Positions 16,112-17,623 of a stretch of DNA of 64,000 bases are shown here, piece by piece (positions within the stretch are counted from its first letter, which is position 1; the number at the start of each line of letters is the position of its first letter). The stretch spans positions 31,465 through 95,464 of the forward strand of contig CAUUHH010000001.1 of assembly GCA_963544995.1 (NCBI GenBank), in the 5' to 3' direction. Both the position numbers and the translations under genes were made by a program. The notes beneath the pieces are model-generated. The model worked only from the letters and a program-made list of their open reading frames with translations, was not told where the DNA came from and made no database searches. This DNA is from an uncultured Alphaproteobacteria bacterium. Its GTDB lineage: Bacteria; Pseudomonadota; Alphaproteobacteria; Rs-D84; CACZYB01.

Positions 16112-17623
16112 TTATTGAGCCCTTACCACACTGCATGGAACATTTTTAGCGGAAAGTTTTTGGCATACCTCATTTGCAATATCGATTTGTTTAAATGGAC
16201 CTATACGAAGTCTGTATAATTCACCACCGTAATATCTTTGCTGACCTATTTCATCAACACCACTTGCCTCTACAGAATAAAATGGTGTGTATTCATCAAG
16301 CCATGCGAGCTTTTCAGTAAGACCAAGCCATTTTGTTTCAAGTTCAACCACTGATTTACCCTTGAATATTTCAACAGATAGATCCTGTCCAGTTTGTTTT
16401 ACAAGTGGCACGTAATGATTTGGAAGAACAGAACCATTAGTATTAGGTTTACTGGATAAATTTTTATAAATTTTCATATTTTGCTCTGGTGACATATAAT
16501 TACCAGTGCCAGCATAATTTAAATTATTAGGATAATTATAGGCATTAGGAGCAGTAGGGCCAGCATGGAAACCAGCAGCATTCATCCCATTTGGAACACC
16601 TTGCATAACATTCATTTGCCCCGTGGTTGACATAATAGGAGTCATATTTATATTAGTAGCATCACCTATATTACCCGCAACACCAATTAAATTTTGTGGC
16701 GGTGGCGGATTGGATAGCAAGTAAGGTTTTGAACGAAGCTTTATACAAACAAGCCTACCGCCATTCCTTAACACCAAGTCACCTATGGCTTCAACCACTA
16801 AAAGTCTGCTTTGTGGGCCCTCGGTCCTGAATCCTACAGGGGATTCTCCACCTTCTACCAAAATGGATACAACAGGCCTTTGATTCATATTTAATGCTTT
16901 TTCACCAAAATCTATATAGGTAAAGATGTTATCACGCCATACACGTTCAGGTGCAATTATATAATCATCAGGATTTGGAACAAAAACATCAAGATCAAAT
17001 CGAAATTCAGTTGGATCGACATTAATACTTTTTATCCATCCAAAATCTTCCCCCTCCCAATCTGTATCACCAATGGATTTAAAGCTTTTACCACCCATCA
17101 TAGATTTGCTTGGTGTAGAACCAGATGAAGAAAGTGAAGATTGACTACCTTTTCTGTATTTGTATGGAACCTCTAAATCTATTACAGATGATGTAATTTT
17201 TTCGGTGTTTAGAGGCTCAGATTTTAGATAAAAAACATATTTATTTCCAGAATTACCAAAAATAAATAAATTAGTATCAGCCATTGCTCTGCCATCAACA
17301 GGAGAAATCATAAAGACATTTTTCTCAATAGGTCTACCATCGAAGAAATCTTTATCCCCGACATAGGCATCCTTTATAGTTTCCCATTCCGGAAAATTTA
17401 TTATGGTAAGCATTCCATCACGAAGTTTTAATGGAATAACAGAACTGGGTTCCCATTGTATTTTTTGATATCCAGGTTTGGTTTGGTTTTCACCCATATT
17501 TTGAAGTGGATTTTCCCAAGCAGCCTGGGTTCCAAAACCATCACCAGTAATTTCACCGTCTACACCAAATGCAGGTAAACCAAAAATAAATAGACATAGA
17601 AATATGTATAAATACCTTTTCAT
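16112..17623 (-). CDS. virB9: Type IV secretion system protein VirB9/TrbG/CagX family with a C-terminal SPOR-like peptidoglycan-binding extension.
   Basis: Signal peptide. VirB9 N-domain (…DTNLFIFGNSGNKYVFYLKS…). VirB9 C-domain (…VVEAIGDLVLRNGGRLVCIKL…, cf. Agrobacterium VirB9 FVLRNGDSAVCV). Then a ~130-aa N/G/P-rich linker and a terminal ~70 aa (FYSVEASGV…YRLRIGPFKQIDIANEVCQKLSAKNVPCSVV) resembling a SPOR domain. Confidence 0.8.
   Translation of the reverse strand: MKRYLYIFLCLFIFGLPAFGVDGEITGDGFGTQAAWENPLQNMGENQTKPGYQKIQWEPSSVIPLKLRDGMLTIINFPEWETIKDAYVGDKDFFDGRPIEKNVFMISPVDGRAMADTNLFIFGNSGNKYVFYLKSEPLNTEKITSSVIDLEVPYKYRKGSQSSLSSSGSTPSKSMMGGKSFKSIGDTDWEGEDFGWIKSINVDPTEFRFDLDVFVPNPDDYIIAPERVWRDNIFTYIDFGEKALNMNQRPVVSILVEGGESPVGFRTEGPQSRLLVVEAIGDLVLRNGGRLVCIKLRSKPYLLSNPPPPQNLIGVAGNIGDATNINMTPIMSTTGQMNVMQGVPNGMNAAGFHAGPTAPNAYNYPNNLNYAGTGNYMSPEQNMKIYKNLSSKPNTNGSVLPNHYVPLVKQTGQDLSVEIFKGKSVVELETKWLGLTEKLAWLDEYTPFYSVEASGVDEIGQQRYYGGELYRLRIGPFKQIDIANEVCQKLSAKNVPCSVVRAQ

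Follow-up and report, generated by a model that had tools for sequence, protein, structure and literature searches.

Canonical VirB9 (TrbG) proteins of minimized type IV secretion systems, such as Agrobacterium tumefaciens VirB9, pKM101 TraO, R388 TrwF and Xanthomonas citri VirB9, possess a signal peptide and two beta-sandwich domains, are encoded between virB8 and virB10, have a small VirB7 lipoprotein as partner and end after their C-terminal domain (R388 TrwF comprises 266 amino acids (aa)). Here, we describe a VirB9 protein that resembles them in domains and gene setting, but continues for about 200 further residues, which form a tether and a SPOR-like domain. Its gene is located in a stretch of 64,000 nucleotides (nt), subsequently designated the window, from an uncultured alphaproteobacterium of the order Rs-D84 (GenBank assembly GCA_963544995.1, contig CAUUHH010000001.1, positions 31,465 to 95,464). 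Positions are those of the window.

The SPOR domains of RlpA, CwlC, FtsN, DamX and DedD resemble the tail of this VirB9 in their beta-alpha-beta-beta-alpha-beta, ribonucleoprotein (RNP)-like fold and in the YRxRxGP motif of strand beta3 with its Arg-x-Arg (HRVRLGP in RlpA). In the commonest architecture of SPOR proteins, the domain sits at the C-terminus and follows a disordered stretch of low complexity (PMC6895207), and this protein is built likewise. The Cys in strand beta4 likewise has a counterpart in FtsN (C312). In contrast to known SPOR domains, the VirB9 tail carries Glu or Asp in place of the signature Gln, has the presumed disulfide partner in helix alpha2 rather than in beta1, and exhibits a longer beta2-beta3 loop and a conserved N-terminal extension. 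Moreover, it is part of a secretion-system subunit, whereas known SPOR domains are found on division or cell-wall enzyme proteins.

Peptidoglycan-anchoring domains are present in further machines, i.e. in TssL/TagL of the type VI secretion system, GspAB of the type II secretion system, TsaP/FimV of the type IV pilus, MotB and Pal, and they adopt OmpA-like, LysM or PG_binding_1 folds. Their logic is the one proposed here: a dedicated peptidoglycan-binding domain, borne on a flexible linker, holds a trans-envelope machine to the sacculus. We know of no SPOR domain in a machine-anchoring role. DotK is an OmpA-like, peptidoglycan-binding protein and a similar case, as it places a module of peptidoglycan-binding type in the outer-membrane core complex of a type IV secretion system (T4SS). 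This complex is that of the Legionella Dot/Icm system (PMC9371333, PMC12857230). However, DotK is a separate OmpA-family lipoprotein of a type IVB system, whereas in the window the SPOR fold is covalently fused to VirB9 of a type IVA-like system. Secretion machines that contain a peptidoglycan-binding module thus have precedents such as DotK, and we do not claim a new category. Gain of an extra C-terminal globular domain at the periphery of the complex by a core subunit also has a precedent: such a domain is reported for Xanthomonas VirB7 (PMC3093366), but there it is an N0 fold forming a protein-protein ring, while in the present case a SPOR fold, presumably a wall anchor, is attached to VirB9.

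The rvh T4SS of Rickettsiales is similar in its genomic setting, i.e. it is encoded on the chromosome of a reduced genome rather than on a mobile element, its genes are split over islands that lie between housekeeping genes, and it includes duplicated VirB8 and a small VirB7 lipoprotein gene adjoining virB8 genes (PMC2653234). The original prediction, which was made from the DNA letters, had placed the protein in a VirB/Rvh context. An Rvh system of Rickettsiales is, however, improbable: the host is placed in the gut order Rs-D84, and a SPOR tail is not reported for RvhB9a or RvhB9b (PMC2653234). Rvh systems have multiplied VirB6 and duplicated VirB4 and VirB9; VirB6, VirB4 and a second VirB9 were not seen in the window or in 1.5 Mb of flanks from relatives. 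The prediction had further suggested that the arrangement was undescribed, which agrees with the literature searched: no paper linking VirB9 with a SPOR domain was found, and the word SPOR is absent from a comprehensive T4SS review of December 2025. The feature is thus undescribed, but the sequences are known, since precomputed Pfam annotations of many public homologues already show the SPOR hit next to CagX.

Architecture of the VirB9-SPOR protein

The gene and its parts are as follows:
16112-17623, minus strand: virB9-SPOR gene, 503 aa plus stop codon (translation of the open reading frame (ORF); Pfam CagX and SPOR; AlphaFold2 (AF2) model compared with solved VirB9 and SPOR structures)
17564-17623, minus strand: putative Sec-type signal peptide, residues 1-20, MKRYLYIFLCLFIFGLPAFG (hydrophobic N-terminal segment; predicted cleavage site)
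17159-17506, minus strand: VirB9 N-terminal beta-sandwich, about residues 40-155, the I-layer domain in solved T4SSs (predicted local distance difference test (pLDDT) score about 95, range 81-97)
16982-17158, minus strand: Ser/Gly-rich inter-domain linker, residues 156-214 (pLDDT <50 at 163-214; poorly conserved columns)
16724-16981, minus strand: VirB9 C-terminal domain, residues 215-300, O-layer and VirB7-binding (pLDDT 55-72; ends with the invariant C293)
16442-16723, minus strand: disordered Asn/Pro/Gly/Ala/Met-rich tether, residues 301-394 (composition; pLDDT 32-39 at residues 300-371)
16385-16441, minus strand: conserved pre-SPOR segment, residues 395-413, 19 aa, ..SVLPNHYVPLVKQ.. (SVLPNHYVPLV)
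16115-16384, minus strand: SPOR-like domain, residues 414-503, about 90 aa (Pfam SPOR, AlphaFold fold, Foldseek)

The original prediction had delimited this ORF exactly, but the strand needed correction, as the gene resides on the minus strand; reading 16112-17623 on the plus strand is ruled out by stop codons throughout the frame. The C-terminal peptide that it quoted is found verbatim at residues 448-500. However, this peptide covers only beta2-beta3-alpha2-beta4 and omits beta1-alpha1.

Identity of the first 300 residues as VirB9 N- and C-terminal domains was borne out by profile and structure comparisons. Pfam CagX/VirB9 (PF03524) matches residues 52-295 with 66.4 bits (cut-off 34.2) over profile positions 3-196 of 198. 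Foldseek searches with the full-length model, which was built from an alignment of 57 homologues, retrieved X. citri VirB9 (6gyb_B, E 1e-13), 8rt6_B (E 1.4e-12) and also DotH and CagX. The N-terminal domain matched that of R388 TrwF/VirB9 (7o3t_B; template modelling (TM) score 0.81, root-mean-square deviation 2.6), and the C-terminal domain matched those of TraO (2ofq, TM score 0.69), X. citri VirB9 (2n01) and TrwF (7o3j_B). The best-conserved stretch of the VirB9 family is located in the C-terminal domain and reads FVPNPDDYVIAPERVWRD.IFTYIDFG. The gene sits between virB8 and virB10, and a VirB7-like ORF is present in the window. The NCBIfam model for the P-type VirB9 equivalog (TIGR02781) scored 51.7 bits, far under its cut-off of 217.7. 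Judged from these scores, the protein is a divergent VirB9 and not a canonical equivalog. The sequence of the signal peptide varies among homologues, while its presence is constant.

The VirB9 core is followed by the Asn/Gly/Pro/Met-rich disordered linker that had been noticed in the original prediction. Composition (N 18%, P 12%, G 11%, A 9% and M 8% in residues 303-394) and a pLDDT of 32-39 indicate that this linker is real, but with about 92 aa it is shorter than the approximately 130 aa first assumed; the distance from the end of the core to beta1 of the SPOR-like domain is about 113 aa. Among homologues the tether is unalignable and of variable length, with a core-to-SPOR spacing of 78-151 aa (median 113). 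A short helix within it (residues 379-389) appears in the full-length model with a pLDDT of about 60. In the pre-SPOR segment, residues L400, P401, P406 and L407 are nearly invariant to invariant, and the pLDDT is low in the models.

The remainder of the protein is a compact domain. To assess the predicted SPOR tail, a PF05036 search, an AlphaFold model and a survey of homologues had been named beforehand as checks, and all three gave positive results. Pfam SPOR matched residues 462-501 of the whole protein with 24.5 bits and the isolated tail with 28.0 bits, both above the cut-off of 21. The AlphaFold model of the tail alone (33 homologues; mean pLDDT 79.5, core >90) exhibited the RNP-like beta-alpha-beta-beta-alpha-beta topology, i.e. 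beta1 (414-422), alpha1, beta2, a long loop, beta3 (469-477), alpha2 and beta4. In the full-length model, residues 414-502 form a compact domain with a pLDDT of 84-97. When the tail was compared with the PDB by Foldseek, the RlpA SPOR domain ranked top (TM score 0.74, target-normalised), and the full-length model gave separate matches to the SPOR domains of RlpA and CwlC. A tail profile run against 1.84 billion representative proteins retrieved VirB9 tails, then distant proteins combining CagX and SPOR, and then multi-SPOR proteins. Because of the predicted fold and this remote sequence similarity, we assign the tail to the SPOR superfamily. Thus the SPOR fold of the original prediction was recovered, albeit over about 90 residues (414-503) rather than the last 70 or so. 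Global hhalign alignment of the tail with four known SPOR domains was discarded as unfit for a register test, as the N-terminal half was mis-registered (probability 17%).

Distribution of the fusion and its plasmid-borne relatives

The protein collection contains more than 1,700 homologues of the window VirB9; the best 120 are all of about 500 aa and all carry the tail, which is conserved to the last residue. The survey of homologues detected the SPOR tail in each of the 257 VirB9-bearing proteins examined, which derive from two large uncultured clades of gut Alphaproteobacteria, one of them the order Rs-D84/Ca. Enterousia. Chance cannot account for such constancy of the arrangement. When species-representative genomes were scanned, at least 519 genomes with a homologue were found. 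The best 80 of these are metagenome-assembled genomes (MAGs) from the gut of ruminants, horses, chickens, termites and humans, many of them Ca. Enterousia. The second, equally large clade consists of MAGs named 'Alphaproteobacteria bacterium', whose VirB9 proteins (480-630 aa) are fused in the same way. Some of the relatives' MAGs were labelled 'Rickettsiales bacterium' by their submitters, but these relatives are Rs-D84/Ca. Enterousia. An exact-sequence look-up yielded no identical sequence on record for the window VirB9, and a 98% identical homologue (P0001) shows the same synteny.

As read from these alignments, conservation of the tail shows that the fusion is under strong purifying selection. 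It also settles whether the fusion is an artefact of assembly or annotation, in which a contig was chimeric or two genes were read as one. The probability of this is practically nil and the idea is refuted, because the same architecture and the same C-terminal end recur in more than 250 independent proteins from hundreds of assemblies of different origin and from complete plasmids of cultured strains.

Among 72,556 plasmids, only 11 VirB9 genes resemble that of the window, and only over residues 33-312. The top two matches are from Sphingomonadales, namely Erythrobacter aureus YH-07 (432 aa) and Sphingosinicella sp. BN140058 (430 aa):
L089 11851-13149: virB9 of E. aureus YH-07 (NZ_CP031358)
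L090 8845-10137: virB9 of Sphingosinicella sp. BN140058 p1

Both belong to complete conjugative operons with VirB2, VirB4, VirB6-like, VirB7, VirB8, VirB9, VirB10, VirB11, VirD4 and a MobA/MobL relaxase. A tblastn search with the tail alone found nothing in the 72,556 plasmids, and Pfam SPOR gave no hit in the Sphingomonadales plasmid tails of about 130 aa. Profile-profile comparison, the only method to do so, revealed that these tails are homologous to the window tail over the entire domain (hhalign 97.6%, E 2.6e-12), with both Cys present and an Asp at the Gln position. Related plasmid VirB9s of Paracaedimonas, Thalassospira and Azospirillum lack the tail. The VirB9 of Microvirga pMVF16-3 (550 aa) has a two-Cys tail that is still more divergent.

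The SPOR signature positions and the proposed wall contact

According to the structural study of the RlpA SPOR domain, the single highly conserved SPOR residue is a Gln in beta1 (RlpA Q270, FtsN Q251, DamX Q351). With its side-chain amide, this Gln is a hydrogen-bond donor to both the lactyl carboxylate of N-acetylmuramic acid (MurNAc) and the N-acetyl group of N-acetylglucosamine (GlcNAc), and the carboxylate is also bound by an Arg cluster composed of R302, R309 and R311 (PMC6895207). The corresponding residues of the window protein are:
16370-16372, minus strand: E418, at the canonical Gln position
16211-16213, minus strand: R471, first Arg of Arg-x-Arg
16205-16207, minus strand: R473, second Arg of Arg-x-Arg
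16163-16165, minus strand: C487, in the SPOR-like domain
16133-16135, minus strand: C497, in the SPOR-like domain

The beta1 and beta3 motifs are LYLQVGAF ... HRVRLGP in RlpA and LSVEIFKG ... YRLRIGP in the window protein. The basic patch of SPOR domains (RlpA R302, R309, R311; FtsN R285) is present, as YRLRIGP aligns with HRVRLGP and its Arg-x-Arg is spaced as R309/R311 of RlpA, which bind the lactyl carboxylate (PMC6895207). At the position of the first Arg (R471), 243 of the 257 VirB9 tails have Arg and 12 have His, and 26 of 30 related non-VirB9 domains have Arg. R473 is Arg in all 257 tails; the 30 non-VirB9 domains have Gln (14) or Arg (12) here. C487 and C497 are each Cys throughout, i.e. 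in 257/257 tails and in 30/30 non-VirB9 domains. At the beta1 position, the latter domains carry Gln (18), Glu (11) or His (1), and hidden Markov model (HMM) alignments place the Gln of their V-Q-L-G motif on the Glu of the tail. A canonical SPOR domain also exists in the lineage: an Enterousia-type genome encodes a DD-carboxypeptidase (Peptidase_S11; locus L081, 20820-21473, minus strand), whose C-terminal SPOR domain keeps the Gln (VQFGAF ... FRVRV). The lineage hence has classical SPOR biology side by side with the Glu-type VirB9 tail. Since the DD-carboxypeptidase has kept its Gln, the sequences identify Glu at this position as specific to the VirB9 tails and not as lineage-wide drift.

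We propose that the VirB9 tail is a peptidoglycan tether of the outer-membrane core complex with altered ligand specificity; from the sequences and models we estimate the probability of this reading at roughly 0.55. According to this proposal, VirB9 would be a subunit of a chromosomal VirB-type T4SS in a gut alphaproteobacterium with a reduced genome (Rs-D84, near Ca. Enterousia). By homology with solved T4SSs, its exported domains would join the VirB7-like lipoprotein and VirB10 in forming the outer-membrane core complex, and a disordered tether of about 90-110 residues would hang from the O-layer domain of each VirB9 and end in the SPOR domain. As the C-terminal domain is expected in the O-layer and the tether has this length, the SPOR domain could reach the peptidoglycan a few nm below. 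A ring of SPOR domains, one per VirB9 copy, would thus contact the peptidoglycan under the outer membrane and bind glycan strands, whereby the machine might be anchored, spaced or positioned in the wall, as suggested by the fold, the invariant basic Arg-x-Arg patch and the position in the periplasm. Judging from known SPOR domains, glycan strands would bind to the face of the beta-sheet that bears this patch. Replacement of the signature Gln by an invariant acidic residue argues that the ligand is probably not the classical, fully denuded MurNAc-GlcNAc strand of FtsN and RlpA; speculatively, another chemistry could be recognized. Peptidoglycan is present in the host lineage: an SLT_2 lytic transglycosylase carrying a PG_binding_1 domain and a protein of the OmpA family are encoded in the window, and published Rs-D84 genomes encode RodA, MreB and MrdA (PMC12306168).

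Several observations weigh against a wall tether. The beta1 position is occupied by Glu in 255 of the 257 tails and by Asp and Gln in one tail each, and the plasmid-borne relatives also have Asp. A deprotonated acid could not give the two hydrogen bonds of Q270 and would repel the lactyl carboxylate (PMC6895207). The register equating E418 with Q270 is based on HMM alignments and secondary-structure position, not on superposition of coordinates. The Pfam alignment is confined to the C-terminal half of the SPOR profile (positions 35/36-76), and a search of PDB sequences with the tail profile returned no SPOR chain at E <10, as the tail is too divergent for sequence-only matching. Finally, neither the 64-kb window nor 1.5 Mb of relatives' flanks (84 loci) yielded VirD4, VirB6 or VirB4, the ATPase that serves as universal T4SS marker. 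Peptidoglycan binding by the tail therefore remains plausible, judging from the sequences, but classical recognition of denuded glycans should not be assumed.

The same residue bears on a role in targeting. If the tail were a classical SPOR domain binding the denuded glycans made by amidases, core complexes could be seeded at division sites and inherited at the new poles. The RlpA study indeed states that all characterized SPOR domains localize to septa via denuded glycans (PMC6895207), and fold and basic patch are conserved in the tail. However, nearly every tail has Glu or Asp instead of the Gln that septal localization requires according to mutagenesis of Q270, Q251 and Q351 (PMC6895207), the canonical SPOR domain of the lineage keeps this Gln, and an amidase gene was not seen near the loci. 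We consider septal or polar targeting quite unlikely. The original prediction that the SPOR domain tethers the core complex to denuded or septal glycans, which was drawn by analogy, is weakened in the same way. A bolder version of the wall tether appears unlikely, too. Here, the tail would be a specificity-switched SPOR domain reading another peptidoglycan chemistry, e.g. de-N-acetylated, cationic glucosamine or a lineage-specific modification, and would dictate where or whether the core complex is inserted. This would define an unrecognized 'wall-docked' T4SS lineage, to which both Sphingomonadales conjugative plasmids and the domesticated chromosomal systems of two very abundant uncultured gut clades would belong, the latter with an enlarged or giant VirB10.

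By analogy, C487 and C497 probably form a periplasmic disulfide that stabilizes the SPOR domain. This also touches on the idea that the tether crosses to the cell surface, where the SPOR-like domain would act as an adhesin binding the exposed wall of a partner bacterium. The position of the C-terminal domain of VirB9 on the outer face of the O-layer in the structures from pKM101 and R388 is compatible with such a role, and Rs-D84 bacteria have been proposed to obtain metabolites from other cells (PMC12306168). However, surface exposure is without support, the two conserved Cys suggest a periplasmic, Dsb-oxidized domain, and a homologous tail is present on conjugative plasmids of free-living Sphingomonadales. 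An adhesin is therefore very improbable.

The surrounding secretion genes and their host

T4SS genes form two islands in the window (13410-18420 and 27735-29528), about 9 kb apart and located among housekeeping genes:
17692-18420, minus strand: virB8, 242 aa, one transmembrane helix, directly upstream of virB9 (Pfam VirB8, 41.8 bits)
13798-16074, minus strand: virB10, 758 aa, transmembrane helix, TrbI domain at 444-663, directly downstream of virB9 (Pfam TrbI, 78.4 bits)
13410-13787, minus strand: 125-aa secreted protein after virB10, signal-peptide-like N-terminus, syntenic in at least 21 related loci
29346-29528, minus strand: virB7-like lipoprotein, 60 aa, TTG start, lipobox LVSGC, first gene of the second island, unannotated
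28465-29370, minus strand: VirB8-like paralogue, 301 aa, one transmembrane helix (hhalign 95.2%, E 2.5e-8; no Pfam hit)
27735-28463, minus strand: VirB8-like paralogue, 242 aa, one transmembrane helix (hhalign 94.2%, E 1.1e-7; jackhmmer from L087 VirB8, E 1e-14; no Pfam hit)

The virB8-virB9-virB10 cassette is kept in all of the about 80-82 loci examined, with differing flanks of housekeeping genes. In closer relatives, the gene for the 125-aa protein is always found 3' of virB10; this protein has a weak, sub-threshold NTF2-like Pfam hit (TcaA_5th) and may be an accessory subunit. The NCBIfam VirB10 score of the virB10 product is below its cut-off. The window VirB10 is enlarged by about 380 residues with weak Ig-like/ASH hits and has an acidic low-complexity C-tail. 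In the distant clade, giant VirB10 proteins of 1,749-2,717 aa are encoded (L086 11452-21429; L087 11611-19764), and L086 contains an additional 1,563-aa gene between virB9 and virB10, which is also a VirB10 match. The operon of this clade comprises VirB4 (found within the operon of L087), five unknown genes, VirB8, VirB7, VirB8, VirB9-SPOR, giant VirB10 and VirB11. One distant-clade locus has an M23 peptidase gene.

The enlarged VirB10 proteins raise the question of a protein-protein contact. The SPOR-like domain could bind a T4SS component or itself and add a periplasmic ring, without any binding of peptidoglycan; candidate partners would be VirB10 in its extended or giant form, the additional VirB8 paralogues and the secreted protein of 125 aa. 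Such a ring would resemble that of the N0 domain of Xanthomonas VirB7 or the CagX/CagY periplasmic ring, and extra rings from globular domains added to core subunits are known (PMC3093366). The glycan-binding Gln is lost, while Glu, the two Cys, W432 and the pre-SPOR motif are strictly conserved, and the VirB10 proteins that accompany the fusion can be unusually large (758-2717 aa). However, the plasmid systems of Sphingomonadales have the tail together with a VirB10 of ordinary size (529 aa). Moreover, a disordered tether of variable length (78-151 aa) suits an anchor that reaches and binds better than a ring, and the invariant Arg-x-Arg patch is the one with which RlpA binds the carboxylate. 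We therefore regard a pure protein-protein module as unlikely, if worth keeping in mind.

The virB7-like ORF was identified by its similarity to lipoproteins of 62-66 aa encoded between the virB8 genes of L086 and L087 (tblastn E 1e-16; jackhmmer E 1e-29 to 4e-35). The overlap of this ORF with the start of the next gene amounts to about 25 nt, and its motif is YEPDPVG.GYD.NELK.SPCAC..TKPGLPEWL. In A. tumefaciens, VirB7 and VirB9 are joined by a disulfide; by analogy, the invariant C293 of VirB9 may pair with a Cys of the VirB7-like lipoprotein. Including both paralogues of the second island, the genome has three VirB8-type genes. A homologue of the 301-aa VirB8-like protein is encoded directly upstream of virB8 in L017, L023 and L083, and in some relatives all three VirB8-type genes precede virB9 in tandem.

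An ATPase resembling VirB11 (321 aa; PF00437 match; 22% identity to TrwD over the full length, E 4e-15) is encoded convergently with the cassette in five close relatives (L005, L007, L008, L011 and L012). When R388 VirB1, B2, B3, B4, B5, B6 and D4 and the five unknown genes of the L086/L087 operons were used as jackhmmer queries, the window and the 84 loci yielded homologues of VirB7, B8, B9, B10 and B11 only. A second VirB9 was not found in the window or in the relatives' flanks. A complete T4SS is likely in this genome. A mobile conjugative element in the window was rejected, given the flanks of core housekeeping genes and the lack of a relaxase.

Further genes were inspected along with the cassette. 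A DUF192 gene (18530-19366, plus strand; 86 bits) encodes a Lys/Ala/Val-rich N-terminal region and one transmembrane helix; the 173-aa ORF at 18499-19020 (minus strand) was discarded as a shadow ORF overlapping this real gene. Pfam scans of ten unknown window ORFs at relaxed thresholds identified DUF192 only. Two adjacent, paralogue-like proteins of 400 and 251 aa (30-1232 and 1266-2021, both minus strand) share a motif (KYKKYLPKFGIEGNRLYQKLSELF and DYKKYLAMFGAGGKDLYEKVKQLV) and have no Pfam hit and no transmembrane helix. In several close relatives, the cassette adjoins an ATP synthase operon with AtpR-like and ATPase_gene1 subunits, similar to N-type ATPases (L008 2274-9148, minus strand); it is not at the corresponding position in the window.

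The window has a G+C content of 30% and carries the core genes tig, dnaN, secD, gatAB, miaB, lptD, lptFG, surA, bamA, skp and lpxD as well as fabZ, lpxC, uvrA, dnaKJ, tsf and rpsB. Rs-D84 bacteria are rod-shaped, fermentative and probably partner-dependent, with genomes below 1 Mb (PMC12306168).

The VirB9-SPOR arrangement makes mechanistic sense and is widespread. So far, the relation of the T4SS core to the sacculus has mostly been discussed in terms of VirB1-type lytic transglycosylases, and a wall-binding module within VirB9 itself would be a different and testable solution. The tails on plasmids of cultured Erythrobacter and Sphingosinicella are potential experimental models, in which genetics is feasible, and the strictly conserved change from Gln to Glu or Asp represents a natural experiment on the ligand specificity of SPOR domains. 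The fusion marks a large, undescribed T4SS lineage in hundreds of species-level gut genomes of less than 1 Mb, and this secretion system may be central to the partner-dependent life style of these gut bacteria.

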